From NCBI GenBank assembly GCA_965115825.1, contig OZ220464.1, positions 2,709,945 through 2,773,944 of the forward strand: 64,000 bases of DNA. The letters are read 5' to 3'. Of this stretch, positions 11,764 through 64,000 are shown piece after piece; the stretch's first letter is position 1; each line of letters starts with the position of its first letter. The notes beneath the pieces are model-generated. The model was not told the DNA's origin and did not search any database. It saw only the letters and a program-made list of their open reading frames with translations. Origin of the DNA: Dehalococcoidia bacterium (lineage in GTDB: Bacteria; Chloroflexota; Dehalococcoidia; Lucifugimonadales; UBA3495). Made by a program: the position numbers and the translations under genes.

Positions 11764-11779
11764 GCGCTCCGGGAATTCA

Positions 11780-13415: not shown

Positions 13416-13451
13416 CGGTTTGCCACAGGGTGGCGTGGGTGGCAGGTTTGT

Positions 13452-15219: not shown

Positions 15220-15262
15220 ATTGATTTCTCTGTCAATTATTTAGTAAAATTCCCATATTTTG

Positions 15263-16621: not shown

Positions 16622-16655
16622 GGCTGATTAGTTGTCCGGCGGGTTGGCGGCAAAG

Positions 16656-17456
16656 TCAGGAGCCCGGCTTCAGAAACGCAAGCAGGGCGCTGACGAAGCC
16701 TTCCGGGTCTTCGATCTGCGGGATATGACCGACGCCCGGCATGATGTGCTTGCGGGCGCGGACGATGTTGTTGTGGAGCAGTTCGGCGCCGTCGCGCAGG
16801 CGGTCAAGCTCGCCGTACAGCGCCAGGGTCTCGCGGGCCTTCACCAGGGGCAGTCGCGCCATGATGTCGTACCAGGCCAGGGATTCGTGGAGCTTCTTGA
16901 CCCAGGGGCCGGCCTGAGCGCGGGCGTCGTTGAGGGCGGCGATCCATTCCGGGCGCGGCTCGGCGAAGGTAGTGGCTGCTTTGGCCTGCTCCGGCGTGCG
17001 GGGAACGGGCAGGCCGTCGGCGTCGTAGCCGGCGGCGGCTTCAGCGAGGCGCTCCGGAGCAGAGCGCGCATCCCACACCGGGGCACCCACCAGAGCCAGC
17101 TTGTCCAGTCGGTCGGGGAAAGACGCCGCCATCTCAACCGCCAGCACGGCCCCTACGGAATTGCCCACGTAATGACCCCGGTGGATGTTGAGTATCTGAC
17201 AGGCATCGTCCAGCGCCTGAGCGTAATCCGGGATGTTGAAATGGCGGGCAGGCTTGTCGGATTTGCCGTGGCCCAGCATATCGAAGGCGTAGCAGGTATA
17301 GTGGCGGCTGAAAGCGTCAATGACGCCGCTCCAGGCCCAAGTGGAGGTTCCCAGTGGGTGGAGCATCACCAGCGGATAGCCGGAACCCTGCTTGACGAAG
17401 TGCATATTGCCTTCCCGGGTGGGTACGGTATCGGCAAGGTCGCGCCGCACGAACAT
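16656..17456 (-). CDS. alpha/beta-fold hydrolase
   Basis: PLVMLHPLGTS..W, FDMLGHGKSDKP, nucleophile elbow VGNSVGA, and C-terminal MPGVGHIPQIEDPEGF. Confidence 0.88.
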   Translation of the reverse strand: MFVRRDLADTVPTREGNMHFVKQGSGYPLVMLHPLGTSTWAWSGVIDAFSRHYTCYAFDMLGHGKSDKPARHFNIPDYAQALDDACQILNIHRGHYVGNSVGAVLAVEMAASFPDRLDKLALVGAPVWDARSAPERLAEAAAGYDADGLPVPRTPEQAKAATTFAEPRPEWIAALNDARAQAGPWVKKLHESLAWYDIMARLPLVKARETLALYGELDRLRDGAELLHNNIVRARKHIMPGVGHIPQIEDPEGFVSALLAFLKPGS

Positions 17457-49714: not shown

Positions 49715-50938
49715 ATGAAAGTCTCTTTCTTCCATCTGATGCCCTATCAGGATCTGCCGGACGATTTTGCGAAGCAGCATCATTCCGCCTGGGTTGACCT
49801 CCCCAACGAGAATTTTGACCCGGTGAAGGGCAGCCAGTATTACGCCGACTACATTGACCAGCTGCGCTATGCGGACGAGGCGGGGTTTGACGGCATCTGC
49901 GTGAACGAGCATCACAACAATGCCTACGGGATAATGCCGTCGCCCAACCTGATTGCGTCGGTTCTGGCCAACAGCACCAGGAAGGGCGCGGTGATTGTCC
50001 TGGGCAACAGCCTGGCGCTGTACAATCCGCCGGTGCGGGTTGCGGAAGAAATGGCGATGATTGACGTCATTTCCGGGGGCCGGCTGGTCGCCGGCTTTCC
50101 GGTGGGGACGTCCATGGATACCACCTTTTCGTATGGGCAGGTTCCGATAACGCTGAGGGAGCGGCACACGGAGGCTCACGATGTGGTGATGCAGGCGTGG
50201 ACGCAGCGGAAGCCGACCATTTTTAATGGGAAGTACAACAAGCTCCGCTACATCAGCATCTGGCCGCGCCCGATGCAGGAACCGCACCCGCCGGTGTGGG
50301 TTCCCGGCTCGGGCAGCCTGGAGACCTGGGACTGGGTGCTGGATCGGGACTACGTGTACTGCTACCTGTCTTACTACGGGTACCTGCGCGGCTACAACAT
50401 AGTCAAGGGCTACTGGGAGCGGGTGGCCGAGCGCGGCATTGACGATAATCCCCACCGGCTTGGGTTCCTGCAACTGGTCTGCGTTTCGGAGACTGATGAA
50501 CAGGCGGAGCGGGACTACGCGGAGCATGTCAAGTACTTCTACGAGAAGATGCTGCGGGTCTATCCGCCCTTTGCGGAATCTCCGGGATACCGCTCTTTGG
50601 ATTCCATACGCAAGTCGCTGCGCCCGCAGATGGGAGAGGAATCTCAGCGGGCCGCGACCGAAAATACGTGGCAGGATTACATTTCCCAGGGGCATATCAT
50701 CGCCGGCAGCCCGGAGACGGTGCGCCGGAAGCTCACGGAAGCCTGCGAACTGCTCCGCATCGGGCATCTCATGGTGTTGTTGCAGATTGGGAGTATGCCG
50801 CCGGAACTGGTGCGCAAGAACACCGACCTGTTCGCCGGCGAAGTGATGCCGCACATCAAAGGGCTGTTCGGCGAGTATGATGATCCCTGGTGGCCGGAAC
50901 GCTTGAAGTCGGAGGCCGTGGAGGCGGGAGCGGACTGA
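49715..50938 (+). CDS. LLM-class flavin-dependent oxidoreductase
   Basis: YADEAGFDGICVNEHHNNAYGIMPSPN and MIDVISGGRLVAGFPVG. It is paralogous to 21070-22221. Confidence 0.9.
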   Translation: MKVSFFHLMPYQDLPDDFAKQHHSAWVDLPNENFDPVKGSQYYADYIDQLRYADEAGFDGICVNEHHNNAYGIMPSPNLIASVLANSTRKGAVIVLGNSLALYNPPVRVAEEMAMIDVISGGRLVAGFPVGTSMDTTFSYGQVPITLRERHTEAHDVVMQAWTQRKPTIFNGKYNKLRYISIWPRPMQEPHPPVWVPGSGSLETWDWVLDRDYVYCYLSYYGYLRGYNIVKGYWERVAERGIDDNPHRLGFLQLVCVSETDEQAERDYAEHVKYFYEKMLRVYPPFAESPGYRSLDSIRKSLRPQMGEESQRAATENTWQDYISQGHIIAGSPETVRRKLTEACELLRIGHLMVLLQIGSMPPELVRKNTDLFAGEVMPHIKGLFGEYDDPWWPERLKSEAVEAGAD

Positions 50939-50987
50939 ATTACGGCCAATGCGAATGCCGGCATCACTACCGCAGCGAGGTGAGATT

Positions 50988-51479
50988 GTGAATGAGAAAC
51001 TGCAACAGGGCGACCGGCTGCCGGGACTGACGCTGAACCTGATTGACGGCGGGAAGCTGGCTCTGCCTGAGGAGATGTCTTCACGCTATCTGGCCCTTTT
51101 ATTCTATCGCGGGGTCTGGTGACCGTACTGCGCGCGGCAGTTGGCCGCGTGGCAGTCTCAGCAGGAGGCTCTGGCGGAGATGGGGTTGGCGATTGTAGCG
51201 GCCAGCGTGGAGCCGAAGGAGGCGGTGCAGGAGATGGCCGAGAAGGCGGGGGCGTCGTTCCCGATGGCTTACGGCGTTACCCGCGCGGATGCGGACCGAC
51301 TGGGTTCGTGGTGGTCTGAGGCGCACGATGGCCACATTCAGCCGACGGAGTTTCTGCTGGGGCGCGGCGGAACCGTGCTGGGCGCGATGTACGCCAGCGG
51401 GCCGGTAGGGCGCGTCAGCCCGGATGAGGCCGTGCACTTTATTGAAGGGAGAGAGCGGGCGCGTCTGCGCAGCAGTTAG
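50988..51479 (+). CDS. AhpC/TSA-redoxin family protein with in-frame TGA at the first Cys of the CxxC motif (candidate selenoprotein, UPYC)
   Basis: Translation across TGA 51120-51122 gives ...SSRYLALLFYRGVW-U-PYCARQLAAWQSQQEALAEMGLAIVAASVE..., the standard redoxin (F)YRG.WCP.C..(Q)L block. The track lists only the downstream part (51141-51479). GAGGTGA lies 4 nt before GTG 50988, and alternative ATG starts exist at 50949 and 50955. Confidence 0.65.
51127..51156 (+). promoter_or_regulatory. SECIS-like stem-loop immediately 3' of the in-frame UGA
   Basis: An approximately 12-bp stem pairs 51127-51138 with 51144-51156, with one bulged G (51151) and one G:U pair. The apical loop is AGUUG. The stem starts 5 nt after the UGA and the loop lies 17-21 nt after it. 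Confidence 0.5.
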
Positions 51480-51521
51480 CTCCGGGGCGGGCAGTTCCGG
51501 GCGAGGCTACTCGTACCGGAG

Positions 51522-52733
51522 CTATCCGTTGAAGAAGCCTTCTTCCCGGAAAAGCTCGGCCAGGCGGCCTACTCCCTCGTGGATTTCTTCGGGGGAGTTG
51601 TGGCTGTAGGTAAGGCGCAGGTAGTTGTTGCGGCCCCGGTCGGAGCGGAACACGCCGCCGGGGTTGTACTTAACATCGCGGGCTACGGCTTTGGGGAGCG
51701 CGGCCCAAGTGTCGGCGTTTTCGGGCAGGCGGACGAAAATCAGCATACCGCCCTGGGGATGGGCCCATTCGCAGGATGAGGGGAAGTTGTGGGCCAGGGC
51801 TGCCAGCATTGCGTCGCGGCGGGCGGCCAAGGCGAGCCTGACTTCCTCGATGTGATCGGGCCCGCGCTGGCGCAGATATTCGTACACCAGCATGGTGGCC
51901 AGGTGGCTTACGCCGCGCCGGGGAGGTACGCCGCCGTTGACCTGACGCAATGCCTGACCTACGGCCGGGGGCATGACCCCGAACCCGACCCGCAATCCGC
52001 AGCCGAGCAGCTTGGTGAATGACGATACATAGATGACGTCGTCGCGGTGGGTGAGGCCGGAAAAGGCGGTAGGGAGAGCGGGGCCGTCAATGCGGAAGTC
52101 GGCGTAGGATTCGTTTTCCAGTATGGGGACGTCGTAGCGCTGAGCGACGTCGAGCAAGGCGCGCCGCCGGGGTTCGGGCACGGTAAATCCGAGGGGGTTC
52201 TGGTACACGGGGATCATCCAGACGAATTTGGGGCGGCGGCCGGCGTCGGTTAAGGAGCGCAGGGCGCTTTCCAGGGCGTCGGGGAGCATGCCGTGTTGGT
52301 CGCAGGCTACGTGGATGGGTTCGGCTCCGCGCTCGAGCATCATGCGGAGGCTGCCGAGGTAGGTGAATTCCTCTACCAGGATGGGGTCGCCGGGGTTGAC
52401 GAAGGCTTCCAGGATGATGCTGACGGCCCCGCCGGCGCCGTCGGATATGAAGACGTCATCGGGGGATGGCGCGAAACCTCTGTTGGCGGCGAGGCGGTTG
52501 GCGATGAGTTCCCGCAGGCCGATGTGTCCGCCGGGCGGGGGATAGGCGGCCAGGGAGTTGGGGCCGCCGGCGTCGAGTCCGGCGCGGACGGCGGTGAGGT
52601 ATTGGTCGAAGGCGATGACTTGGGGCACCGCGTTGGTGATGGAAAAGACGTATTTGGCGGGAGCGTCCGCGCCGTCCGGCATGGCTACGGGCCGGGGCAG
52701 GTTGCGGGAGAAGAGGGCTGAGTAATCTACCAT
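51522..52733 (-). CDS. PLP-dependent aminotransferase (class I/II, MocR/2-aminoadipate transaminase-like catalytic domain)
   Basis: YPPPGGHIGLRELIA, ENESYADF and the SSFTKLLGCGLRVGF lysine block. Confidence 0.85.
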   Translation of the reverse strand: MVDYSALFSRNLPRPVAMPDGADAPAKYVFSITNAVPQVIAFDQYLTAVRAGLDAGGPNSLAAYPPPGGHIGLRELIANRLAANRGFAPSPDDVFISDGAGGAVSIILEAFVNPGDPILVEEFTYLGSLRMMLERGAEPIHVACDQHGMLPDALESALRSLTDAGRRPKFVWMIPVYQNPLGFTVPEPRRRALLDVAQRYDVPILENESYADFRIDGPALPTAFSGLTHRDDVIYVSSFTKLLGCGLRVGFGVMPPAVGQALRQVNGGVPPRRGVSHLATMLVYEYLRQRGPDHIEEVRLALAARRDAMLAALAHNFPSSCEWAHPQGGMLIFVRLPENADTWAALPKAVARDVKYNPGGVFRSDRGRNNYLRLTYSHNSPEEIHEGVGRLAELFREEGFFNG

Positions 52734-52770
52734 TATCAGAGTCTCCGGGTTTGGCCGATTGTGGGTGAGA

Positions 52771-53970
52771 TTATACTTGGGTTTTGCGGCGGGCGGCTAC
52801 GCCTTCGCGGAGTCTGGGGATCAACTCGCGGCCGTAGTCGGCGGCGTCGGCGAGGGGGGCGAAACCCCGGATGATGAAGGCGGAGCAACCGAGGTCGTAG
52901 TAGGCGAGGAGGGAGTCCGCTACCTGCTGGGGGGAGCCCACGAGGCAGGTTGTGCTGCCGGAGGCGCCGCTGGCGGCGGCGATGGGCATCCACAGCCGCT
53001 CGTCGTGGATGCTGCCTTCGGCGGCGAAGCGCAGGAGACGCCAGGCGCCTTCCGATTGGGGACGGGTAGGCACGCCCGGGGAGATGCGGCCGGCGGTGGC
53101 CTGTTTGACGCGGGAGAGGATCTGCTCGGCGCGCTGCCAGGCTTTGGATTCGGTGTGGGCGATGATGGGGCGGACGGACAGGCTGAAGCGCATTTCATGG
53201 GGGTTGCGGCCGGCGGCGGCGACGCGGGCGCGCACGTCGGCGATGCGCTGGGCGATGGAGGCGCGGGGCTCGCCCCACAGGGCGAAGAGGTCGGCGCGAC
53301 GGCTGGCTACGTCGAGGGCGATGTTGGACGCGCCGCCGAAGAACAGGGGCAGGTGGGGGCTTTGACGGCAACGGGCCTGGCTGTAAGCGCCCTGCAATTG
53401 GTAGAATTCGCCGTGGTGGTCGAAGGGTTCGGTTTCGGTCCAGACGCGGCGCATGACGTGGAGGTATTCATCGGTGCGGCGATAGCGGGCGTCGTGGTCG
53501 AGCCAGTCGCCATCCTGACGCTGCTCGAGGTCGTTGCCGCCGGTGATGATGTGGAGGGCGATGCGGCCGTTGGTGAGCTGGTCGAGGGTAGCGGCCTTGC
53601 GGGCGGCGAGGGTGGGAGCGACGAAGCCGGGGCGATGGGCGATGAGGTAGGCGAGGCGTTTGGTGTGGGCGGCGGCGTAACCGGCGACTTCGAAGCCGTC
53701 GGGGGTTGAGGAGGAGTAGCCGGTGAGGACCAGATCGAAGCCGGCGGCTTCGTGGGTGCGGGCGAAGTCGAGGATGTAGTCGGGGTCGACGCCGGAGGGG
53801 ACTTCGGCGCCGGGGTTGATGCCGCCACCGAAGAGGCTGAGGGTTGCGCCGCGGTTGTCGGGGGCTTCTGGGACTACGCCAATCATTCCGATGACGGTAA
53901 GGCCGTCGGCGGAGTACACGCTGGGAACGGTTGGGGTCGGCGCGATGGCGCTGCTTTCAGCGTTGGACAT
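52771..53970 (-). CDS. LLM-class flavin-dependent monooxygenase (alkanesulfonate/dimethylsulfone monooxygenase-like)
   Basis: FARTHEAAGFDLVLTGYSSS, LIAHRPGFVAPTLAARKAATLDQLTNGRIALHIITGG. Confidence 0.85.
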   Translation of the reverse strand: MSNAESSAIAPTPTVPSVYSADGLTVIGMIGVVPEAPDNRGATLSLFGGGINPGAEVPSGVDPDYILDFARTHEAAGFDLVLTGYSSSTPDGFEVAGYAAAHTKRLAYLIAHRPGFVAPTLAARKAATLDQLTNGRIALHIITGGNDLEQRQDGDWLDHDARYRRTDEYLHVMRRVWTETEPFDHHGEFYQLQGAYSQARCRQSPHLPLFFGGASNIALDVASRRADLFALWGEPRASIAQRIADVRARVAAAGRNPHEMRFSLSVRPIIAHTESKAWQRAEQILSRVKQATAGRISPGVPTRPQSEGAWRLLRFAAEGSIHDERLWMPIAAASGASGSTTCLVGSPQQVADSLLAYYDLGCSAFIIRGFAPLADAADYGRELIPRLREGVAARRKTQV

Positions 53971-54087
53971 ATTGGGACAGCTCCTGATTTGGGATGCTTG
54001 GCCGGGCCAGTTTAGACGATTCGGGGTTGATGGGGATAGGGCGGGCGAATTGTCTGAAATTCGTTTGAAAATTGGGTGACGGGGGTA

Positions 54088-54116
54088 TTGACAAGCATCA
54101 TTGGACGCTATACTAT
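54088..54116 (+). promoter_or_regulatory. strong sigma-70-like promoter (consensus TTGACA; -10 TATACT at N15 or TACTAT at N17)
   Basis: TTGACA at 54088-54093, then TATACTAT at 54109-54116, in a short AT-rich patch. Confidence 0.55.
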
Positions 54117-54120
54117 GTAT

Positions 54121-54485
54121 TCAAGGCGCTGGGGTTGCAGGGAAACCCCGCCCGCCGGGATCCCGATGGCCAGAGAAGAGCCGTCGTCATTGCAGGAGGT
54201 TGAAGTGGTTTCGCTGATAACGCTGAACCATAGTTGGCATTTCCCCTGTAAGCGCCCCGTTGGCGGGGCCGATGCGGTATGACGATGCCGGGAGGACGCC
54301 AAGCGGGGCGAAAGCTAATCGGGTGGGCCATTGGTTGGCACTGACGATGCCAGACGCCCAGAGCAGCGCAGACGAGGCGCTCCCAGAGGGCGGGCACATC
54401 GGTCGTAAAGACCGACAGGCGGATGGCCGCAGCCGATGAGAAACGGAGCCAGCGCACCGACTGTTTATCGGGCGCTGGCTTTTCT
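54121..54485 (+). ncRNA. candidate ~365-nt structured RNA of unknown class, ending in an intrinsic terminator
   Basis: No credible ORF is present. Many local hairpins occur (GGGGTT-GCAGGGA-AACCCC; GCCCCG-TTGG-CGGGGC; CGGTC-GTAAA-GACCG; GGCA-CTGACGA-TGCC). A long-range pairing links CGTCGTCAT (54183) with ATGACGATG (54278). A 12-bp terminator hairpin at 54448-54479 is followed by TTTTCT. The strand is inferred from the promoter. Confidence 0.4.
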
Positions 54486-54564
54486 GGTGGGTCATTCTGA
54501 TGCTCTGACTGCGATTCCGGGGATTTAATTGTGGTTGCGTGGGAAAGGGGGGCATTGGGGGCGG

Positions 54565-55419
54565 CTATCGGGTTTGGTCGGGATGGGCGGCCAGCGCGGC
54601 CTGGTATTGCGCCGGCGTATTGATGTCGCAGAGCAGTTCCGGGGCGGCGAGTTCGACTCTTTGGGTTGTGGTTGGGCAGTTTTGGACGACGGCGCGGATG
54701 CCCTGGGTGGTTTCGGTTATGGCGAGGAGTTGCGGGTAGAGGGCGCGGCTGATGGCAATGGGGTGTCCGCCTTTGCCGTTGCAGGTGGGGATGGTAATCA
54801 GCGCGGCGGGGTTATTGAGGTGGGCGAGGAGCACTTGGCGGATGATGGCGGCGCTGCGGGGCTGGTCGACGTTGAGCAGCAGGATGGGGCCGGGCGGGAG
54901 GTGGGGAGGGTTGGAGATAGCGCGGAGGCCTGCTTTGATGGAGGTAGTTTTGCCCTGGGCGTAGTGGGGGTTGACGACACAGCGGACGCTGCCGGCCTGG
55001 TGAACATCGCGGTTGGCGCCGATGCGGGCCTGCAACTCGTCGGCTCGGTGTCCGAGGACTACGATGACTTCATCGGCGCCGGCCTGGCGCAGGGCGGTTA
55101 TCTGGTGGATGATGAGGGGGCGGCCGTGCCAGTCGAGGAGGGCTTTGAGGGATCCCATGCGCCGGGATACGCCGGCGGCGAGGAGGATGGCGGAGGTGTA
55201 TTGGGGATGGTGGATCGGAGGGTGGGTATGGGACGCGGAAGCCGGGGTAGGTTCCGCAGGTTGGCCGGGCGCGGGGTCGGGCCGGGCCGATGGGGGCTGC
55301 CGAGAGGAGGTTGCCGGGGGGCGCCGTTGGGATGACACGGGGATGTGGCTGTGGGGGTTATCGATTGGGAGGGATGGCAGGATGATGCGGATGCGGTGGG
55401 TAGTCGGGAGGGATGACAC
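54565..55419 (-). CDS. MobA-like NTP transferase (molybdenum cofactor cytidylyltransferase MocA-like) with a P-rich N-terminal extension
   Basis: AILLAAGVSRRMGSLKALLDWHGRPLI...VIVVLGH is the NTP_transf_3 N-terminus. The only in-frame start codons upstream of this block are GTG 55419 and GTG 55339, which gives a 60-87 aa P/S/H-rich extension. Confidence 0.75.
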   Translation of the reverse strand: MSSLPTTHRIRIILPSLPIDNPHSHIPVSSQRRPPATSSRQPPSARPDPAPGQPAEPTPASASHTHPPIHHPQYTSAILLAAGVSRRMGSLKALLDWHGRPLIIHQITALRQAGADEVIVVLGHRADELQARIGANRDVHQAGSVRCVVNPHYAQGKTTSIKAGLRAISNPPHLPPGPILLLNVDQPRSAAIIRQVLLAHLNNPAALITIPTCNGKGGHPIAISRALYPQLLAITETTQGIRAVVQNCPTTTQRVELAAPELLCDINTPAQYQAALAAHPDQTR

Positions 55420-55441
55420 GGGGATGCCGGTGTGGGGGTTA

Positions 55442-56578
55442 TCAGTCGGCGGTGAGGCCCATGGCGCGGTGGGCGCGGCGTTCGGCGCGTTCGAGGTACC
55501 AGTCGTCCATGGTCATGGGGCTGCCTTTGCCGCCGCGACGGGCCATGATGATTTCGGACATTATGCTTACGGCGAGTTCATCGGGTTCGAGGGCGCCGAT
55601 GTCGAGGCCGATGGGGGCGTGGACCTGGGCGAGGCGTTCTCGGGGTATGCCTTCTTGCAGCAGGCGTTGGTAAATCATGAGGGTTTTGCGTCGGCTGCCG
55701 AGCAAGCCGATGTAGCGGGCCCGGGTGGTCAGGGCGGATTCGAGGGCTACGTCGTCGAACCAGTGGCCGCGGGAGGCGATGACGATGAAGCTGTTGACGT
55801 TGATGTCCAGATGCTCGGCCCAGCCGGCGTAGGGGGTGACGATGGCGCTCTGGGCGTAAGGGAAGCGCTGGGGGTTGGAGAAGTCGGGTCGGTCGTCGAC
55901 GATATGGACGCGGTAGCCGAGGCGGTGGGCGAGGTCGGCGGTGGCTTTGCCGACGTGTCCGCCGCCGACCATTATGAGAGTTGGGGGGGTGGTGAATCCT
56001 TCGACGAAGAGCTCGGTGTGGTCGTCGATGGCGATGGATTCGTTGGCGCCGACGGCGGCGACGCGGCGACAGGCGTCGATGGCGATTTGGTCGAGTTGGG
56101 CTGTGCCGATGCTGCCGGTGATGGAGCCGTCGGAGCGTAGGAGGAGTTTGGCGCCGAGGGGGGAGGCGTCGGCGTCGGAGCGGACGATGGTGGCGAGGGC
56201 GGCGGGTTCGGCGCCGTCGTAGGCGTTGAGGAGTTCGTGTCCGATGTGGGAGAAATCGGCGGGGTTCCAGAGGGGATCCAAGTAGAAGTACATGGTGCCG
56301 CCGCAGACGAGGCCGTCGCGGGCGGCGATGTCTTCGTTGAGGTAGTAGTCTTTGAATTGCGGGCCGCCGTGGGAGCGGAGGATTTCGCGGGCGGCGAACC
56401 AGATGTCGCCTTCGACGCAGCCGCCGCCGAGAGTGCCGACGGCGCTGCCGTCCTGTCGCACGAGGAGCATGGCGCCGGCTTTTTGGGGAGTGGAGCCTTT
56501 GGTGCGAACTACGGTGGCCAGCACGCAGGGGCTGCCGGATTCCAGCTGGTTGACCGCTTCCTGAATTACGTCGCGCAC
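55442..56578 (-). CDS. XdhC/CoxI-family molybdoenzyme maturation protein
   Basis: N-terminal XdhC_CoxI block (CVLATVVRTKGSTPQKAGAMLLV..DGS..GTLGGGCVE) and Rossmann block (LIMVGGGHVGKATADLAHRLGYRVHIVDDR). Confidence 0.88.
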   Translation of the reverse strand: MRDVIQEAVNQLESGSPCVLATVVRTKGSTPQKAGAMLLVRQDGSAVGTLGGGCVEGDIWFAAREILRSHGGPQFKDYYLNEDIAARDGLVCGGTMYFYLDPLWNPADFSHIGHELLNAYDGAEPAALATIVRSDADASPLGAKLLLRSDGSITGSIGTAQLDQIAIDACRRVAAVGANESIAIDDHTELFVEGFTTPPTLIMVGGGHVGKATADLAHRLGYRVHIVDDRPDFSNPQRFPYAQSAIVTPYAGWAEHLDINVNSFIVIASRGHWFDDVALESALTTRARYIGLLGSRRKTLMIYQRLLQEGIPRERLAQVHAPIGLDIGALEPDELAVSIMSEIIMARRGGKGSPMTMDDWYLERAERRAHRAMGLTAD

Positions 56579-56648
56579 GCTGTCACCTGTTTGATGCCTG
56601 GTTGGGGTGGGTTGTTGGGGTTATTATACCTTGAAATGGGGTGGTGGT

Positions 56649-56956
56649 GGTTGTCTGAATCAGGATTTACCGGATTTTGGGATTTTCGGGATTGGGGGCC
56701 GGTTCCCGGAGTGGGGGCCGGCTTTCGGTGGGGTGACTTTGGGGTGGGTGTGGTTGTCAGAATCAGGATTTACTGGATTTTGGGATTTTCAGGATTGGGG
56801 CCGGCTCTCGGAGTGGGAGCCGGCTTGCGGAGGGGTGACTTTGGGGTGGGTGTGGTTGTCTGAATCAGGATTTACTGGATTTTAGGATTTTCGGGATTGG
56901 GGGCCGGCTCTCGGAGTGGGAGCCGGCTTTTCGGTGGGGTGACTTTGGGGTGGGCT
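56649..56956 (+). repeat. 3 tandem ~103-bp units, each starting with the dispersed core repeat
   Basis: Units start at 56649, 56752 and 56854 (GGTTGTC[TA]GAATCAGGATTTAC[CT]GGATTTTGGGATTTTCGGGATTGGGG...). They lie between the xdhC start and the 3' end of the 57016-57993 ORF. Confidence 0.9.
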
Positions 56957-57015
56957 CCGGGGTGATTGGTTGTGGGTCCGGAGCTTGGGGGTGGTGTTGG
57001 GTGTTGGGTGTTGGG

Positions 57016-57993
57016 TTAGATGCGGAGGGGTAGGGGGGTGGGTAGTTTGATGTGGAAGGTCTTTTCCAGGGCCCTCCGCCAGAGGGGGGAGAGGGTGATG
57101 AAGGCTGAGTTGGTGGTTATTTTGCGCGGCTTGGGGTGGCAGTAGCAGGGTACGGGTTCCTGGCGTAAGAACTCGTAGTGGCCGTGAGGGTCGGTTTTGG
57201 CGGCTAGTTCGTTGGGGAGGCGGAAGTGGCTGCGGATTTTGGCGAAGTTGGGTAGGCCGGTGATGTCGCGGACGGAGTAGAATGTGGGAGGGCTGATTTC
57301 GTGGGGTTTGCGGAGGTAGCGTTGGGTAGGTCGGACGGGTAGGGGTTGTCCGGCGATGATGGCGTTGGCGGCTTTGAGGAAGGCGGCGGCGCGACGGCGG
57401 AGGCGGGTCAGGGAAGTGAAGGTGTTGCGTTGGTGGTGGGTGTTGGCTTGGGTGTCGTTGATGTGGGTTACGTTTTGGCGGCGGTTGGTGTTGGCGTGGC
57501 TGGTGTCGTGGGCGGCGTCGATATGGGTGGCGTTCTGGCGGCGGTTGGTGTTGCCGTGGCTGGTGGCGTCGCTGTTTTGGCGGCGGCGGGTTTTCCCGTC
57601 GCTGTTGGCTTGGGTAGCGTCGATATGGGTGGTGTTTTGGCGGCGGCGGGTTTTCCCGTCGGTGTTGGTGTGGTTGTTGTGGTGTTTGGATTTGGGTAGG
57701 TGTGGGGAGTTGTAGATTTCGCGGAAGGTTTTGACGTGGGAGCGGCTGAGGTCTCCGTCTCTGACGTACCATCTGAGGGCGCCTTCCATTTGGCGGGGGG
57801 AGCGGTGCCAGAAGGGACGGTTTTCGGCCAGGGCCGTGGCGGAGTGGGATATGCAGCGGGCGATGGCCTGGATGGCGCGCTCGATGTTGCCTTCGGCGAT
57901 GTTGGTTTGGGCGTGTTTGAGGAACCGGTCGGCGCAGCTTTGGTGGCGCGCGATGGTTTCCGGGTCGATGGTATCCCGGTAGATGGTTTCCAT
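57016..57993 (-). CDS. hypothetical highly basic protein with an internal ~20-aa repeat region; coding strand strongly G-depleted
   Basis: AGGAGG lies 11 nt upstream of the ATG at 57993. The N-terminal ~95 aa (METIYRDTIDPETIARHQSCADRFLKHAQTNIAEGNIERAIQAIARCISHSATALAEN...) and C-terminal ~130 aa are non-repetitive and look helical/globular. The middle is (GKTRRRQN..THIDA)-type repeats. Caveat: stop codons are rare on this C/A-rich strand, so long ORFs can arise by chance. Confidence 0.45.
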   Translation of the reverse strand: METIYRDTIDPETIARHQSCADRFLKHAQTNIAEGNIERAIQAIARCISHSATALAENRPFWHRSPRQMEGALRWYVRDGDLSRSHVKTFREIYNSPHLPKSKHHNNHTNTDGKTRRRQNTTHIDATQANSDGKTRRRQNSDATSHGNTNRRQNATHIDAAHDTSHANTNRRQNVTHINDTQANTHHQRNTFTSLTRLRRRAAAFLKAANAIIAGQPLPVRPTQRYLRKPHEISPPTFYSVRDITGLPNFAKIRSHFRLPNELAAKTDPHGHYEFLRQEPVPCYCHPKPRKITTNSAFITLSPLWRRALEKTFHIKLPTPLPLRI

Positions 57994-58065
57994 TGGCTGG
58001 GTGGCCTCCTGGTTGGGTTGGTTGGTGTTTGGTGTTGTTGGTTTGGTTGGTTGGTTGGGGTTCGT

Positions 58066-58306
58066 GGGGGTTCAGGATGTCGGCGCTACGGTCTGAGAGC
58101 GTGGCTTGCTATTTACGTCCTAGTCTTGCGCGTGCTGACGGCTGCTTGGGCAGCGCTCGTCCTCGCGCAGCGGTGGTGACGCCCGCCGTGCTGGGTGCGC
58201 CAGCCGGGTAATGTGACCGACCTCCGGCGCACCTACAGTGGTGCAATGGATCCGACGTGCCGCAGAGTACTGGTTGCGGCGGTTTAGACCGTGTTATCCT
58301 GAACCC
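58066..58306 (-). ncRNA. ~240-nt highly structured element within the long 5' leader of the 57016-57993 ORF (unknown class)
   Basis: A perfect 12-bp closing helix joins GGGGTTCAGGAT (58067-58078) and ATCCTGAACCCC (58295-58306), extended by ACGGTCT/AGACCGT. Internal helices include GGTGCGCC...GGCGCACC, GCCGC...GCGGC and GCTGC-CCAA-GCAGC. It sits between the promoter at 58432-58460 and a C/A-rich linker plus SD. Confidence 0.45.
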
Positions 58307-58431
58307 CGTTGAACTCCTGTTTTAGCCTCCTGGCTGGATTTTGGTGTCGGGCTGGTGTCCTGGCCGGTGCACCGGGCTGGGACGGTATCCGGACGGTTCG
58401 CGAGGGGCCGTTGGATTAGCCTGACGGGGGT

Positions 58432-58460
58432 ATTATAGCGTACTGGCGTGCGTGGTGCAA
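58432..58460 (-). promoter_or_regulatory. near-consensus sigma-70-like promoter (TTGCAC-N17-TATAAT)
   Basis: On the minus strand, the -35 element is the reverse complement of 58455-58460 and the perfect TATAAT is the reverse complement of 58432-58437. It would start a transcript ~430 nt upstream of the ATG at 57993. Confidence 0.55.
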
Positions 58461-58466
58461 TAGGGG

Positions 58467-59000
58467 ATTGTCAGAATCAGGATTTACGGGATTTTAGGAT
58501 TTTCAGGATGGGGTTGTGGAGTGTTGCGGAGGGTGGGGTGTGGTGTTGGAGTGGGGGGTGGTGGTTGGGTTGGCGGGTTTGTTGGTGGGGGGATTGTCAG
58601 AATCAGGATTTACGGGATTTTGGGATTTTCGGGATGGGGTTGTGGGTGCGTTGCGGAGCGTGGGTTGCGGTGTTGGAGTGGGTGGATAGTGGTTGGGTTG
58701 GCGGGTTTGTTGGTGGGGGGGTTGTCAGAATCAGGATTTATGGGATTTTGGGATTTACAGGATGGGGTTGCGGGTTGTTTTGCGGAGCGTGGGTTGTGGT
58801 GTTGGAGTGGGGGGTGGTGGTTGGGTTGGCGGGTTTGTTGGTGGTGGGATTGTCAGAATCAGGATTTATGGGATTTTGGGATTTACAGGATGGGGTTGCG
58901 GGTTGTTTTGCGGAGCGTGGGTTGTGGTGTTGACGGGTTTGTTGGTGGTGGGATTGTCAGAAGCGGGATTTACGGGATTTTGGGATTTTCGGGATGGTGG
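58467..59000 (+). repeat. 4.5 tandem ~126-bp satellite units, each starting with the dispersed core repeat
   Basis: Units start at 58467, 58593, 58721, 58849 and 58953 (ATTGTCAGAATCAGGATTTACGGGATTTTGGGATTTTCGGGATGGGGTTG plus a G/T-rich remainder). Confidence 0.92.
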
Positions 59001-59114
59001 TCTGGTTAGGGAGAGGCGGTTCAGGATGGGGTTGTGGCGGGGAGGTGGTTGCGGAGGATGGGGGTGTGGGTGGTGACCGGTGGGAGGATTGGTTCGGGTT
59101 TGGGGAGCGGTGGC

Positions 59115-59503
59115 GGTGGCTCTGGGAGCGGGGGCGTTAGCACCCCTGCGCCCGCGGTCAGCGTCCTGGTAAGAGGGTGGCTCTGGGAGCGGTGGCGTTA
59201 GGCAGCGTCGCCGACAGCGCGCATGCCCGTAGAGTGGTGGCTCTGGGAGCGGGGGTTTTAGCGAATCGGTTTATTGATCGGCGCGGCGGAGTCTGTGGTG
59301 GCTCTGGGAGCGGGGGTTTTAGCCTTGTTCATAAACGGCGTTCCCGTAAGCAGCAGGATGGTGGCTCTGGGAGCGGGGGCGTTAGGAGTTGCGGGATGAT
59401 GCTGACTATCACATAGTGGGGGTGGCTCTGGGAGCTGGGGCGTTAGGCCCGCGTGGCGCGTCTTACCGAGGCTGAGATGGGGGTGGCTCTAGGGGGGCGT
59501 TAG
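59115..59503 (+). CRISPR. small orphan CRISPR-like array: 7 repeats (26 nt, consensus GGTGGCTCTGGGAGCGGGGGCGTTAG) and 6 unique spacers (34-37 nt)
   Basis: Repeats are at 59115, 59176, 59236, 59297, 59360, 59421 and 59482. The last is truncated to 22 nt and degenerate, so it is taken as the trailer end. Spacers are 35, 34, 35, 37, 35 and 35 nt and are mutually unrelated by eye. Several repeats carry 1-3 substitutions. No cas gene is recognisable in the window. Confidence 0.6.
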
Positions 59504-59584
59504 GATGGGGGTGGGGCGTGTTACACTAGACGCCAATTTTTGCTGTGGGCCGGCGGCTTTTGCGGGGCCCGAGAAGGCTTGGCT

Positions 59585-61657
59585 ATGGTTCCCCCTGATG
59601 ATTTTATTGGAGTGATGCCTGCTTGGGTCGGGGTGTATGGGCTGACTTTTGTCGTTCTTGCCGTGGCCGGCTGGGCGGTGTATTACCGCGTTTTCCGGTT
59701 GGTACTGCAAGGGACGTCGTCGGCCCGATTTGACCGTCCGTTGACGCGACTGGCGGGGGCGGTTGGCATAGTGCTGGGGCAGCGCAAGGTGCTGCAACGA
59801 GTGGGACGCACGGACCCGCGTTCTCGTCGCATTGACTTGGCCGGGATAGGGCACGCCGCTATTTTCTGGGGGTTCCTGTCTTTCAGCCTGTCCTATCTGA
59901 TTTTCATATTCGGGGGGGCGATCTGGCATCCTTTGGGGGAAACGATACTGACGAAAACCGGGGTATTGGCGTACAGCATCTACCTGGATATTCTGGCGGT
60001 AGTGGTGCTGGCGGCGCTGGCGTGGGCATTGTTCCGCCGCTGGGTGGCGCAGCCGCATCGTTTGAGCTTTGACCTGACTCGCAAGGGGGAGTCGGTGATA
60101 ATTGTGGGGCTGACGGCGGGATTGATGATAGCAACGCTGCTGACGCACGCCTGCTATGTGGCTGCCGGCGGGCAGGGGCCGGAGGCGGAGGTGATTATCG
60201 GCGGCGCGATTGGCGGATGGTTCACGGGTATGGGAATGTCGGCGGCTACGGCGTGGGCGCTGCACGGGGCGTTCTGGTGGATTCATCTGCTCATCATACT
60301 GGGTTTTGCGCTGTACATTCCGTTTTCCAAGCACATTCACATGGTGGCGGCGCCGGTTAACGCGTTTTTCCGGAACTTGGGGCCGCGGGGAGGGCTGGAA
60401 GTTCCGATTATTGACTTGGAAAGCATGGATGAAAACGCGCGGTTCGGGGCGTCGCGGGTGCAGGATTTTACCTGGCGGCAGCTGCTGGACGGGTATGCCT
60501 GCGCGGTGTGCGGACGGTGCACGGACGCCTGCCCGGCGAATGTTACGGGCAAGGTTTTGTCGCCCATGCATATTGTGGAGAATTTGAAGGAGCATATGAT
60601 AGCCATTGGGCACCAGGGGCCGCGGGACGCTACTCATGTGGAGCCGATGCCGCTGATTGACGGGGCGATACCGGAGCAGGCTATTTGGGACTGCGTGTCG
60701 TGCGGGGCGTGCATGGAGGAGTGTCCGGTGGTGGTGGAGCATATACCGACGATTATGGATATGCGGCGGAGTCTGACGCTGGAGGAATCGCGCATTCCGG
60801 AAACCGGGATGAATGCGTTGATCAGCATGGAGCAACGGGGCCATCCGTGGCGGGGCACGACGTTTGGGCGGACAGACTGGGCTGCGGGTCTGGATGTGCC
60901 CACGATTGCGGAGAAGCCCGACGCGGAGGTGCTGTTCTGGGTGGGATGCACCGCGGCGTTGGAGCAGAGGAGCCAGGGGATCGCGCGCTCGATGGTGAAG
61001 GTGCTCAAGTCGGCGGGGGTGGATTTTGCGATTCTGGGGGAGGAGGAGTCGTGCACGGGGGATCCGGCGCGGAGGATGGGCAATGAGTATCTGTACCAGA
61101 TGCTGGCGCAGCAGAATGTGGAGGTGATGAACAGGTACAACATCAAGACGGTGGTTACCATTTGCCCGCACTGTTTCAATACCATCCGCAACGAGTATCC
61201 GCAGTTTGGCGGGGACTATGAAGTGCTGCATTACAGCCAGTTTGTGGACGGGCTGATTAAGCAGGGTCGGGTCAAGCCGGTGAAGGTGATGGATGTGACG
61301 GTGGCGTACCATGATCCCTGCTTTTTGGGTCGGCACAACGGGGTTTATGATGAGCCGCGGAACGTGGCGCGTGCGGTTCCGGGTCTGCGGCTGGTGGAGA
61401 TGTCGCCGCGATGTCGGGAACGGAGTTTTTGCTGCGGCGCGGGGGGCGGCCATATGTGGATTGAGGAGAGTCAGGGTGAGCGCATCAACCACGTCCGCAC
61501 GGACCATTTTCTGGAGACCGGGGCCGACACGGTGGGGGTCTCCTGCCCATTCTGCCTACAGATGATGAATGAGGGCATCCAGTCCAAAGGGCAGGCGGAC
61601 AGCAAGGAAGCCCGGGACGTGCTGGAGTTTCTGGCGGACAGCCTGGGGGAGGACTGA
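59585..61657 (+). CDS. membrane-bound (Fe-S) oxidoreductase: NarI/DsrM-like heme-b membrane domain fused to an HdrD/DsrK-like domain
   Basis: The N-terminal ~260 aa has 5-6 hydrophobic helices. Two ferredoxin-type motifs follow (CAVCGRCTDACP; CVSCGACMEECP), then two CCG-type cysteine-rich domains (FWVGCTAA..., YHDPCFLGRH..., CCGAGGG). Confidence 0.85.
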   Translation: MVPPDDFIGVMPAWVGVYGLTFVVLAVAGWAVYYRVFRLVLQGTSSARFDRPLTRLAGAVGIVLGQRKVLQRVGRTDPRSRRIDLAGIGHAAIFWGFLSFSLSYLIFIFGGAIWHPLGETILTKTGVLAYSIYLDILAVVVLAALAWALFRRWVAQPHRLSFDLTRKGESVIIVGLTAGLMIATLLTHACYVAAGGQGPEAEVIIGGAIGGWFTGMGMSAATAWALHGAFWWIHLLIILGFALYIPFSKHIHMVAAPVNAFFRNLGPRGGLEVPIIDLESMDENARFGASRVQDFTWRQLLDGYACAVCGRCTDACPANVTGKVLSPMHIVENLKEHMIAIGHQGPRDATHVEPMPLIDGAIPEQAIWDCVSCGACMEECPVVVEHIPTIMDMRRSLTLEESRIPETGMNALISMEQRGHPWRGTTFGRTDWAAGLDVPTIAEKPDAEVLFWVGCTAALEQRSQGIARSMVKVLKSAGVDFAILGEEESCTGDPARRMGNEYLYQMLAQQNVEVMNRYNIKTVVTICPHCFNTIRNEYPQFGGDYEVLHYSQFVDGLIKQGRVKPVKVMDVTVAYHDPCFLGRHNGVYDEPRNVARAVPGLRLVEMSPRCRERSFCCGAGGGHMWIEESQGERINHVRTDHFLETGADTVGVSCPFCLQMMNEGIQSKGQADSKEARDVLEFLADSLGED

Positions 61658-61686
61658 CCAGGTGAGGGAGAGAGGCGGGCAGGATT

Positions 61687-62247
61687 ATGGCAGGGCAGCG
61701 CTCGGAACAATCTGAACAGACTGAATCGTTGTTCAACGTAACGCCGGCGCGACGGCGCGTTTATCTGGTATCGTTCGTTGCGTACAGCCTGATTGGTTAC
61801 GGAGTGGTAATATGGCATCATGCGTCCGATGGGGCAGCGGCGGTGAGTGGTGGGGACGGAGTTGCCAGTGTCAGCGCGGCGGCGATGGTTATGTCGGTTA
61901 TGCTGGGCTTTGCGATTGCCCATGCGGCGGCGCTGGGGTTGGCGTTGACAACGGCGGAAACGACGGGAGGAACTATGGTAATAGCAGATTGGCTGAGAGA
62001 GAAGTGGCTGATCCCTCTGCAAGAGCAGAGGCGGGCTGAGGGGAGAGCTGAGGGGAGAGCTGAGGGGAGGGCCGAGGGGCAGGCTGAGGGGAGAGCTGAG
62101 GGGAGGGCCGAGGGGCAGGCTGAGGGGAGGGCTGAAGGGCAGGCTGAGGCTAACCGCGCTTGGCGTGAGTGGAATCGTAGGCGCAGGGAGACGGAGGAGC
62201 GGGGTGAACGATTTGATGAGCCGGAGCCGTATGAGGATGATGAGTAG
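61687..62247 (+). CDS. small membrane-anchored protein with a (R/Q)AEG tetrapeptide repeat array and an acidic tail
   Basis: Hydrophobic N-terminal half, then GGTMVIADWLREKWLIPLQEQR. About 10 x 12-bp units (~62034-62148) encode RAEG/QAEG, followed by NRAWREWNRRRRETEERGERFDEPEPYEDDE. Confidence 0.55.
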   Translation: MAGQRSEQSEQTESLFNVTPARRRVYLVSFVAYSLIGYGVVIWHHASDGAAAVSGGDGVASVSAAAMVMSVMLGFAIAHAAALGLALTTAETTGGTMVIADWLREKWLIPLQEQRRAEGRAEGRAEGRAEGQAEGRAEGRAEGQAEGRAEGQAEANRAWREWNRRRRETEERGERFDEPEPYEDDE

Positions 62248-62410
62248 CAGTGGGTGGGAATGGGATGGGAGGGTGTCCGGTGTGCTGCTGGGGATTTTGG
62301 GACGCTTGCTGCTGTTTTGGCCTCAGGCGGGATGCGTAGGTGGGCTTGTGTGCGCCTTGCAGTTTAGGCTCGGCCGGGTTGTGTGGGCCGGCTGACTGAC
62401 TTGGGATGGA

Positions 62411-62671
62411 TTGGGCTTTGCGATTGCCCATGCGGCGGCGCTGGGGTTGGCGTTGACAACGGCGGAAACGACGGGAGGAACTATGGTAATAGCAGATTGG
62501 CTGAGAGAGAAGTGGCTGATCCCTCTGCAAGAGCAGAGGCGGGCTGAGGGGAGGGCTGAAGGGCAGGCTGAGGCTAACCGCGCTTGGCGTGAGTGGAATC
62601 GTCGGCGCAGGGAGGCGGAGGAGCGGGGTGAACGATTTGATGAGCCGGAGCCGTATGAGGATGAGGAGTAG
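62411..62671 (+). pseudogene. N-terminally truncated duplicate of 61687-62247 with only 3 tetrapeptide repeat units
   Basis: Near-identical to the 3' two-fifths of the upstream gene (GFAIAHAAALGLALTTAETTGGTMVIADWLREKWLIPLQEQRRAEGRAEGQAEANRAW...EDEE). The only start is TTG, and the first TM segments are missing. Confidence 0.5.
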
Positions 62672-62749
62672 CAGTGGGTGGGAACGGGAGGGGAGGGTGT
62701 CCGGTGTGCTGCTGGGGATTTTGGGACGCTTGCTGCTGTTTCGGCCTCA

Positions 62750-62977
62750 GGCGGGATGTGTTGGTGGGCTTGTGTGGGCTGTGTGGTTTAGGATGATGAC
62801 GGAGTTTTGGCTTTGGGCGGGATGTGTTGGTGGGCTTGTTGTGTGCGCTGTGCGGTTTAGGATGATGACGGAGTTTCGGCTTGGGCGGGATGTGTTGGTA
62901 GGCTTGTGTGGGCTGTGTGGTTTAGGATGATGACGGAGTTTCGGTCTCGGGCGGGATGCGTTGGTCGGCTGACTGAC
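62750..62977 (+). repeat. 3.4 tandem copies of a ~66-bp unit (GGCGGGATGTGTTGGTGGGCTTGTGTGGGCTGTGTGGTTTAGGATGATGACGGAGTTT...)
   Basis: Units start at 62750, 62816, 62884 and 62950. A single diverged copy lies at ~62326-62400 after the first gene copy. Confidence 0.88.
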
Positions 62978-63036
62978 GTTGTAGGACATTTGGGGATGTT
63001 GAGGGCTGCTTTGGATGTGTTGCTGGGGCTCTGAGG

Positions 63037-63822
63037 ATGTTGAGGGCTGTTTCGGTTATGCTGTTGGAGATTTTGGAGCGGCGGCTGCTGTTTCGGCCTC
63101 GGCCGGTTTGCGCGGGTAGGCCCACGGACTTGGACATGGATTATGAGGAGAGCTGGGCGGAGACCGGGGACGGTCGGCGGCTGCAATGCTGGTATATTCC
63201 CGGTGATACGCAGCCGGATTTGACATGGTTGTGGTTTGGCGGCGTCGGCGGCAACCTCAGCCTTCGCGTTGGCGAGTTTGCGGCGGTGCGTAAATATACG
63301 GGGGCCAGTATCCTGGGGTTTGACTACGGCGGATTTGGGAACAGCCTGGGCAAGGCGTCGGTGCAGAACACCGCGGTTGACGCGCGAACTGCCCTGGGAC
63401 ACCTGCAAGAGCGATACGGGGTCGAGCCGCAGCGCACCTTGTATTTGGGGGTTTCAATGGGAGCGGCGGTAGCGATTCGGCTGGCGTCGGAAGGGGTTTC
63501 GCCCGGTGGTGTGGCGCTGGTGGGGCCTTTTGCGTCGCTGCGGGATATGGCGCGGCGGCAGTATCCGGCTCTGACGCTGGGCGGCTGGATGGTAGGCAAC
63601 CGTTACGACTCGCTGGCTTATGTGGGGGGCATAGGCTGCCCGCTGCTGATACTGCATGGCACGGAGGACGCAACTGTGCCGGTGGGGCAGGCGCGCAAGC
63701 TCTATGCGGCGGCGGCGGATCCCAAGGAGTTTGCGGAAATCGCCGGCGCGGGGCACCTGGATATTGGCGAGGCGCCGGAGTTCTGGGATGCGCTGTGTCG
63801 GTGGATGGACGGTTATTCTTAA
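63037..63822 (+). CDS. alpha/beta-fold hydrolase (BEM46/ABHD13-like)
   Basis: N-terminal LERRLLFRPRP, nucleophile elbow GVSMGAA, and C-terminal ILHGTEDATVP...AGAGHLD. Confidence 0.85.
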   Translation: MLRAVSVMLLEILERRLLFRPRPVCAGRPTDLDMDYEESWAETGDGRRLQCWYIPGDTQPDLTWLWFGGVGGNLSLRVGEFAAVRKYTGASILGFDYGGFGNSLGKASVQNTAVDARTALGHLQERYGVEPQRTLYLGVSMGAAVAIRLASEGVSPGGVALVGPFASLRDMARRQYPALTLGGWMVGNRYDSLAYVGGIGCPLLILHGTEDATVPVGQARKLYAAAADPKEFAEIAGAGHLDIGEAPEFWDALCRWMDGYS

Positions 63823-64000
63823 TATGCAATGACATTGGATTTTGCCCACTGTCGCCAGCACAGCGGCGCTGCGCTCCTGCCGTACACTTTGGTACGCTGA
63901 TGCTGCCGCCATCGGCTCAACTGCTTACGCCGCGCCGAATGCAGTCTCTCTTCAGGTTGCCGCTCCTCGTTTGGTTGCCACGCTCGGGTATGCTGGCAAC

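Follow-up and report, generated by a model that had tools for sequence, protein, structure and literature searches.

A conserved structured RNA paired with a predicted HEPN-fold protein gene in a satellite-flanked unit of Dehalococcoidia

Within a 64,000-nt window (the whole stretch of DNA that was analysed) of contig OZ220464.1 from a Dehalococcoidia bacterium, the minus strand carries a compact unit in which a promoter (58432-58473) is followed by about 430 nt that on direct reading hold no open reading frame (ORF), and then by an equally directly read ORF of 325 aa (57016-57993). The leader is made up of a 5' domain (58308-58425) that opens with the predicted transcript start, GUCAGGC at 58425, and of a structured RNA core of about 240 nt (58067-58307), delimited with an 18-sequence alignment (A5) and RNAalifold. 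Between the RNA and the ribosome-binding site lies an unstructured, G-poor linker composed of C and A only (58011-58066), which leads into a Shine-Dalgarno sequence, AGGAGG (58005-58010), and an ATG (57991-57993); direct reading confirmed this arrangement as the initial annotation had given it, and the Shine-Dalgarno sequence and ATG are kept in the close copies of the unit. Satellite arrays lie on both sides. The RNA and the protein, whose models have the HEPN fold, very probably constitute a functional pair.

The association between the two is strict. A scan of 185,579 species genomes recovered 19 loci in 14 metagenome-assembled genomes (MAGs) of Dehalococcoidia/Chloroflexi, look-ups added five near-identical loci (L020-L024), and a 22-nt RNA pattern found four matches in metagenome contigs, two of them true units. 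According to a hidden Markov model of the core, exactly one RNA core lies directly upstream of the ORF and on its strand in 26 of 26 ORF-bearing loci (drawn from the 14 genomes, one other assembly and the two metagenome contigs), and the RNA was found only before this HEPN gene family; in distant loci, blastn and nhmmer likewise detect the leader ahead of the ORF. One clade (L016-L019, four loci in three genomes) encodes an HEPN-only protein of about 150-165 aa that lacks the C-terminal domain; the upstream RNA core is intact in L017-L019, where it adds compensatory changes, and is partly detected in L016. Because the RNA persists alongside an HEPN-only protein, the conserved pair is HEPN plus RNA.

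Strand composition is asymmetric at positions 50000-64000 and 1-17000 of the window, where C occupies 63-74% of third codon positions (C3) in minus-strand genes and the GC skew reaches 0.5. Since such a bias makes long minus-strand ORFs cheap, the coding status of the 325-aa ORF needed testing: a spurious ORF of 672 aa (59489-61507) faces a real Fe-S oxidoreductase gene (59540-61657), and the locus of the unit itself contains an overlapping 296-aa ORF in another frame. That the ORF arose by chance in G- and T-poor DNA is ruled out by homologues in 14 MAGs, by a conserved frame and by nonsynonymous substitution rates (dN) below synonymous ones (dS), which upholds its earlier description as a real gene for a basic protein. 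The product has a pI of 10.9 (10.4-11.3 in the family) and probably binds nucleic acid. Its C-ending codons had been thought to set the gene apart from its neighbours, which proved not to be so: C3 is 0.73 in the ORF and 0.74, 0.73, 0.64 and 0.63 in minus-strand neighbours, plus-strand genes are rich in G at third positions (0.45-0.52), and the codon bias is a regional strand bias and not specific to the gene. Only a low overall G content (16% vs 20-25%) is particular to the ORF.

The family is small. Among 5.8 billion proteins, 21 relatives were found: nine, besides the window's own protein (P0001), are encoded on the same 3,265,669-bp contig (274-419 aa; 70-87% identity overall and more than 90% outside the repeats), five lie on contigs of another assembly, and several are repeat-free homologues with 35-59% identity. 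When 1.84 billion cluster representatives were searched exhaustively with a profile, only 104 matched, and an exact-sequence look-up of the window ORF and two same-genome paralogues found no record. Among six close copies, dN/dS in the C-terminal domain is 0-0.2 (lowest 0/0.04, highest 0.010/0.050), and the N-terminal region exists as two recombining haplotypes.

The whole RNA measures about 360 nt here and comprises a 5' hairpin domain and the 240-nt multi-helix core, closed by helix P1. In the 5' domain, a variable hairpin is enclosed by helix P0 (GUC.GGC with GCC.GAC), after which comes a small hairpin, AGCC-AGGA-GGCU; the conserved GUCAGGC at the predicted start pairs with GCCCGAC as a 5' stem that is kept through changes in L009 and L017, and P0 is predicted in most homologues. 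The perfect 12-bp helix that the initial annotation had reported (GGGGTTCAGGAT/ATCCTGAACCCC) is present, with its 3' arm at 58067-58078 as given, but its 5' arm occupies 58296-58307, one base away from the 58295-58306 then claimed; the 7-bp helix said to extend it (ACGGTCT/AGACCGT, 58286-58292 / 58088-58094) was found as described. In the consensus structure of the core, P1 (58298-58306 / 58068-58076) and P2 (58286-58292 / 58088-58094) enclose an optional hairpin. Further in are a three-part stem (58218-58239 / 58190-58207), an invariant hairpin, GGCGG/CCGCU, with an 11-nt loop (58183-58187 / 58169-58173), and P5, a long stem with a variable insertion (58157-58168 / 58128-58141), all read on the minus strand. 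A possible pseudoknot would join GUCGG (58252-58256) to CCGAC (58079-58083); both arms are invariant and so give no covariation signal. Several single-stranded stretches of the core are invariant as well.

Covariation gives strong support to the claim that the leader is a conserved structured RNA. The consensus from 18 sequences contains 47 pairs, 21 of which show compensatory changes (RNAalifold). Under the named structure 96% of the cells are paired, as against 26-39% in slid controls, and 21 pairs are changed on both sides, as against 4-7; none of 500 shuffles attained the observed values. These counts were made on MAFFT alignments and are conservative. Folding of the leader also beats shuffled controls (z = -3.2), and identity over aligned columns is 75-86% for the core vs 68-78% for the coding domains, which makes the RNA at least as conserved as the protein.

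The RNA does not correspond to a class described in the sources we searched. Against Rfam 15, the whole window at gathering scores and the interval 56.5-59.3 kb at E <= 10 yielded only tRNAs and noise; at E <= 10 there was no match to the abiF motif (RF03085) or to any other described antitoxin RNA, and a literature search found no paper describing the RNA. The two remaining matches of the 22-nt pattern in metagenome contigs are due to chance and fall inside an apparent thiamine pyrophosphate (TPP) riboswitch before cytX-thiD. The leader of that operon (L026, 7100-7230; L027, 250-360) is TPP-riboswitch-like (CUGAGA ... ACCUGA ... GGGUAAUGCCAGCG), and the Rfam gathering scan is empty there.

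In the DNA runs X1-X3 the core (58067-58307) has 10-20 times the contig depth of the linker and ORF, and the step falls precisely on the ends of the core. This peak speaks neither for solo RNA copies nor for RNA accumulation; contigs of more than 100 kb occur in these runs, and the peaks stand on the most conserved segments. The likelier cause is that the conserved core attracts short unitigs derived from many members of the family in the community.

Turning to the protein, the initial annotation had mentioned a faint likeness to HEPN and PaREP1 proteins, and this impression is borne out by structure and by distant relatives. The window protein has no Pfam match at E <= 10. Its AlphaFold2 (AF2) model contains a four-helix bundle at residues 11-94 (pLDDT about 90; 57712-57963, HEPN-fold helices 1-4 from the model and Foldseek), a disordered basic repeat block, GKTRRRQN..THIDA, at residues 99-185 (pLDDT below 40; 57439-57699), a long helix at 180-213, and a small C-terminal domain modelled with moderate confidence. 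All top Foldseek matches of this model in the PDB are HEPN proteins, though weaker than those of P0017, a repeat-free homologue (pLDDT 83). The latter matches AF0298 (2hsb) with E = 4.6e-4 and a TM score of 0.83 over 123 columns, followed by 1wol, 1ufb, 1o3u, 4nqf, the HepT toxins 7bxo, 6m6w, 5yep and 7ae6, and the PaREP1 representative 2q00. Because the P0017 match extends over the counterpart of the post-repeat helix of the window protein, and because this counterpart packs on helices 1-4, the repeats are best seen as inserted into the loop that joins HEPN helices 4 and 5. The last helix, placed by superposition on P0017 at residues 186-213 (57355-57438; LTRLRRRAAAFLKAANAIIAG), and the N-terminal bundle together form the HEPN fold in these models. 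Among 56 distant relatives found with the family profile, four match Pfam HEPN (PF05168, best 8.6e-4) and three PaREP1 (PF05942, best 3.1e-7).

Near-invariant residues of the N-terminal part are H17, R46, H50, A54 and R67, with H86, K88 and R91 conserved in the closer family; in the last helix (LRRLRRRxAAF), R201 is near-invariant across the wide family. From their conservation, H17, R46, H50 and R67 could contribute to activity. The repeats of about 20 aa in the middle of the ORF, noted earlier, correspond to 60-nt repeats by TRF; the length of the block varies among paralogues (274-419 aa in total), and the block is missing in distant homologues.

The remaining segment (residues 214-325 plus stop; 57016-57354), defined with alignments A1, A7 and A10, is an orphan C-terminal domain. 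Searched as the protein, as the family profile and as a profile of the domain alone, it has no match in Pfam, the PDB, NCBIfam, PADLOC or PHROGs, and Foldseek against viral structures gave nothing significant. Its invariant motifs are D268-P-H270-G-x-Y273, P280-x-P-C283-x-C285-H286 and L-S-P-L-W305, of which the His/Cys/Cys/His set suggests a candidate zinc site. No nuclease, recombinase or transposase domain was found in the ORF with Pfam, NCBIfam or PADLOC. In the L016-L019 clade, an ATC stands at the start position after a GGAGA Shine-Dalgarno sequence (about 4995-5480), which suggests weak translation. A more distant HEPN-only relative, P0063 (L029, 2600-3000), has the same promoter layout with the transcript start GTCAGGT, a possible partner for the ACCTGAC that immediately precedes the Shine-Dalgarno sequence; the core RNA model has no match there, and L029 may carry a diverged or different leader RNA.

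By sequence, transcription of the unit is assigned to a sigma-70-type promoter. The hexamers read as claimed at first, TTGCAC (-35, 58455-58460) and TATAAT (-10, 58432-58437) with a 17-nt spacer, but 'near-consensus' overstated the case: the -35 hexamer matches the consensus at only three of six positions, and a consensus promoter scan did not list the site for this reason. Conservation speaks for it all the same. The promoter is identical across six close copies, and its layout, here including TGACAAT at 58467-58473, recurs in 14 other genomes as TGACAC, about 8 nt, TTGCCC/TTGACA, 17-18 nt, TAcACT/TATAAT, 7-9 nt and GTCAGGC; the last motif lies 7 nt past the -10 hexamer here and is kept in nearly all loci. 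The linker is too short and uniform for a second promoter, and the shared promoter precedes the RNA.

The spacer from RNA to ATG (57994-58066, including AGGAGG) consists of A, C, G and T at 0.44, 0.48, 0.08 and 0.00. Its G content is 0.08-0.20 in most loci and 0.23-0.26 in L007, L014 and L015; its length runs from 55 to 542 nt, and its sequence is unrelated between loci. A distance so variable speaks against a simple leader whose role is to drive the ribosome-binding site or to occlude it.

Genomic context differs between the window genome and its relatives. The latter have 1-3 copies of the unit per genome, and at least seven distant loci (on distinct contigs, most from separate MAGs) are syntenic: a luciferase-like monooxygenase and an SDR gene lie upstream on the opposite strand, and downstream are a flavin monooxygenase, whose co-oriented gene begins about 90 nt after the ORF, and two MFS transporters. 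This conserved neighbourhood marks the unit as an old chromosomal resident of those genomes. The window genome has at least 10 copies on one 3.27-Mb contig, and there and in the related assembly each copy has different neighbours.

A possible, if rather doubtful, explanation of these features is that the RNA is a cis-regulatory leader, either a riboswitch or an autoregulatory element bound by its own protein, which would control read-through into the gene of a non-toxic RNA-binding protein, or its translation, for example by Rho-dependent termination in the spacer. The RNA always occupies the 5' untranslated region on the strand of the gene, downstream of the one promoter that can be seen, and has a covariation-supported fold; its multi-helix architecture, in which many unpaired bases are invariant and a pseudoknot is possible, is of the kind seen in ligand-binding RNAs; the G-poor, C-rich spacer resembles a Rho loading site; the neighbours in at least seven loci are metabolic, with the flavin monooxygenase close downstream; and the protein lacks the canonical HEPN catalytic His. 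However, the RNA is tied to one protein family and not to several genes of one pathway, the variable and unrelated spacers leave no conserved expression platform, and the RNA is not followed by a hairpin of terminator type. It would also be unusual for a metabolic regulator to reach at least 10 near-identical copies and to carry a hypervariable loop.

None of the RNA runs contains the window's own sequence, and evidence of transcription comes from a close relative of locus L002. In two metatranscriptomes from sponges there are contigs that match the L002 RNA with 95-97% identity, which shows that this RNA is transcribed. One contig of 404 nt extends from about 33 nt past the predicted start to about 30 nt beyond P1, into the spacer, and so covers nearly the whole predicted RNA; another, of 265 nt, stops at P1. 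Among the assembled contigs of both metatranscriptomes, which are of low depth, the ORF of this relative is not represented, nor are there ORF contigs at 90% identity in X6, a run of unknown kind with low coverage. Against L012 the metatranscriptomes match conserved fragments only. These data weakly suggest that the RNA builds up as a species distinct from the ORF mRNA.

That the system is RNA-regulated, as had been proposed, has direct precedents in AbiF/RCd22 and AbiV. In C. difficile, RCd22, which carries two abiF motifs, and the AbiF gene share one promoter from which the short RNA predominates (PMC12373285). Direct binding by RCd22 neutralises the toxic AbiF HEPN protein, whether in cis or in trans (PMC12373285). 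The AbiV protein of Lactococcus is an HEPN RNase inhibited by the RNA abiV2 (bioRxiv 10.1101/2024.05.05.592566). By analogy, our tentative preference is that the unit works like these type-III-like toxin-antitoxin pairs, a reading to which we give somewhat less than an even chance. The RNA would be made first and in excess; most transcripts would end in the C-rich, G-poor spacer through Rho, or be trimmed there by an exonuclease stalling at P1, and through this loss little protein would be made. The folded RNA would then bind the basic HEPN protein and hold it inactive, and only loss or displacement of the RNA would free it. A conflict-type module is suggested because the lineage-specific expansion, the hypervariable loop, the near-cognate start in one clade and the RNA-only contigs would all fit one.

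The likeness to AbiF/RCd22 lies in an HEPN gene preceded by a structured RNA on the same strand behind the same sigma-70-type promoter, in an RNA that would be the more abundant product, in the possibility of several copies per genome, and in type-III-like logic. The two systems nevertheless differ in several respects. The HEPN clade here is AF0298/PaREP1-like HEPN-T without RxxxxH, a motif that AbiF toxicity needs; the RNA is a multi-branched molecule of 240-360 nt, whereas AbiF has two hairpin motifs of about 35 nt; no intrinsic terminator follows the RNA; the protein carries, in addition, a repeat loop and an orphan domain at its C-terminus; and the unit is chromosomal and syntenic, whereas AbiF resides on prophages or plasmids. 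AbiV/abiV2 is likewise a two-part system of HEPN protein and RNA in which the RNA inhibits the protein and a large basic surface anchors it, but we found no sequence or profile similarity to AbiV, and the RNA described here is much larger, with covariation-supported complexity.

In fold, the protein resembles the minimal HEPN-T proteins (AF0298, 2hsb; TM0613, 1o3u; ST0689, 1wol; TT1696, 1ufb; PaREP1, 2q00) and HepT, with target-normalised TM scores of 0.6-0.83. As in the AF0298-type family, the Arg of the last helix is conserved and the catalytic His is missing, and the PaREP1 families also form multi-copy expansions. Unlike the minimal proteins, its HEPN domain is split by the repeat insertion and fused to an orphan domain; and unlike HepT of the type VII HEPN-MNT systems, its partner is an RNA, the neighbourhoods of related loci holding no MNT partner gene near the unit. 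The order of promoter, antitoxin RNA and toxin gene, and an RNA-protein complex as the proposed resting state, are shared with the type III systems ToxIN, CptIN and TenpIN. In those, however, a non-HEPN toxin cuts an RNA made of 34-36-nt repeats in tandem, and a terminator separates RNA from gene, as opposed to the single large RNA, the HEPN fold and the lack of a terminator here.

Several observations weigh against the toxin-antitoxin reading. The RNA is unrepeated and far larger than RNA antitoxins (36-nt repeats, abiF hairpins of about 35 nt), and its size and complexity would suit a sensor. The Rx4-6H catalytic motif is absent, there being no His four to six residues past R201; a conserved state without the catalytic His is described for AF0298-type HEPN-T families (Anantharaman et al. 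2013, PMC3710099), and the HEPN-fold protein may bind RNA without cutting it. A terminator scan found no intrinsic terminator between RNA and ORF, and the syntenic loci offer a metabolic setting, not a defence island or mobile element. Finally, the transcript data are low-depth assembled contigs of a relative, in which the absence of the ORF may reflect divergence or coverage.

If the RNA were instead a scaffold, sensor or guide in a lasting ribonucleoprotein with the HEPN protein, acting on other RNAs, the complex could serve housekeeping or stress functions, or be an RNA-directed HEPN nuclease. We regard this as unlikely. It would accommodate the strict co-occurrence of RNA and HEPN protein even where the C-terminal domain is lacking, an RNA at least as conserved as its very basic protein, the synteny in at least seven loci, which points to probable vertical inheritance, and the RNA-only contigs in metatranscriptomes; there is also the proposal that AbiF-ncRNA complexes were ancestors of Cas13 (PMC12373285). 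Yet the six close RNA copies lack a guide-like hypervariable segment, the canonical HEPN active site is missing, the unit is linked to no array or other partner gene, and the very narrow distribution (104 of 1.84 billion cluster representatives) argues against housekeeping. Less probable still, in our estimation, is an RNA that, as a sensor or a programmable partner, would direct or gate an HEPN effector independently of CRISPR, or one that would itself act as a ribozyme or ligand sensor and let go of the protein in response to a signal.

The satellite arrays that flank the unit in the same orientation are real, but they belong to a genome-wide repeat that also occurs away from any unit, at 743-990 and 17794 in the window, and that is not specific to it. 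Upstream (58463-59075, minus strand), units of about 128 nt with the core AAATCC..AAATCCCGTAAATCCTGATTCTGACAA run in the orientation of the ORF; TRF gives a period of 128 nt, 3.7 copies and 92% matches, with a looser continuation to 59075, and the repeats fall into families D1/D2. Downstream (56637-56954, minus strand), TRF finds 3.1 copies of a 102-nt unit. The GGATTT/AAATCC core flanks all five close paralogous loci and has the orientation of the ORF in all six. The satellites probably promoted duplication of the unit by recombination and are probably not part of the machine itself. Upstream of the promoter in L005, L008, L009, L012, L013, L025, L028 and L029, all in distant genomes, there are related ATCC(T/C)GT motifs with a phase of about 10 nt, which hint at a protein-binding site, and the satellite may derive from this upstream region of the unit.

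The many copies also raise the question of a mobile element, in which the whole succession of satellite, promoter, RNA, ORF and satellite would transpose, the ORF would encode an unrecognised and perhaps RNA-assisted transposase, and the satellites would be ends or footprints. We consider this very improbable. At least 10 copies on one contig and five in a related assembly do stand in different neighbourhoods, all are bracketed by same-orientation satellite, and a contig of run X3 that joins 56800, in a downstream satellite unit, to 59503, ahead of the Fe-S gene, thereby skipping the unit and the nearby CRISPR-like array (2702 nt), may be an empty site. But the domain searches turned up nothing of the transposase, recombinase or nuclease kind, and the repeats on either side run in direct orientation, differ in copy number and also lie away from units (no systematic search for target duplications was made). 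Distant relatives have only 1-3 copies, syntenic in at least seven loci, and viral contigs contain none. The join in X3 may represent an empty or deleted allele in another strain, and it consists of only 24 nt on one side, within repeats. As a separate observation, one paralogous unit (L021) has a 143-aa fragment of an IS110-type DEDD transposase (2970-3401) about 600 nt upstream, which was seen at no other locus.

Some 620 bp upstream of the unit is a CRISPR-like array (59080-59507, minus strand) of seven 26-nt repeats, CTAACGCCCCCGCTCCCAGAGCCACC, with unique spacers of 33-35 nt, near which no cas gene was noticed. The initial annotation had counted this array as part of the architecture and had likened the whole to RNA-guided systems, and on both points we arrived at a different view. 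The array repeat is absent from 28 of 28 other loci; the array is private to the window locus, and a CRISPR link of the unit is thereby ruled out. Nor does the RNA have a variable guide segment, the six close copies being about 97% identical with no hypervariable guide-like segment in the core, and the protein has no nuclease or recombinase domain of guided systems. CRISPR-Cas13, the omega-RNA systems of IscB/TnpB and the bridge RNA of IS110 thus differ from the unit, which has a single HEPN fold and in which no RuvC, HNH or DEDD domain was found. The 22-nt RNA pattern likewise had no matches in viral contigs. Elsewhere in the window, 61900-63100 contains an array with a 12-nt period, GCTGAGGGGAGA, a 424-nt duplication and units of 65-69 nt.

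The architecture of the unit is a known one; undescribed are an HEPN clade with this RNA, this class of RNA, the orphan domain at the C-terminus and a copy expansion inside satellites. HEPN proteins restrained by a co-transcribed RNA (AbiF, AbiV) have been shown experimentally only recently and are the proposed root of Cas13. The unit would add a third, independent HEPN clade with an RNA partner, and that partner is several times larger and more complex and is backed by covariation. If this is correct, control of HEPN domains by RNA would be recurrent and would reach beyond Firmicutes and phage defence islands, and structural work would gain a new class of large structured RNA together with an orphan Cys/His domain. 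Should the RNA prove to be a sensor or programmable partner, the unit would be a second example of the kind of trajectory that may lead from AbiF to Cas13, and as a ligand sensor it would represent a new riboswitch-like class in an uncultivated lineage. For the organisms themselves, the pair would provide a handle on why symbiont-type Chloroflexi genomes amplify such modules, along with a dispersed satellite, to at least 10 copies.

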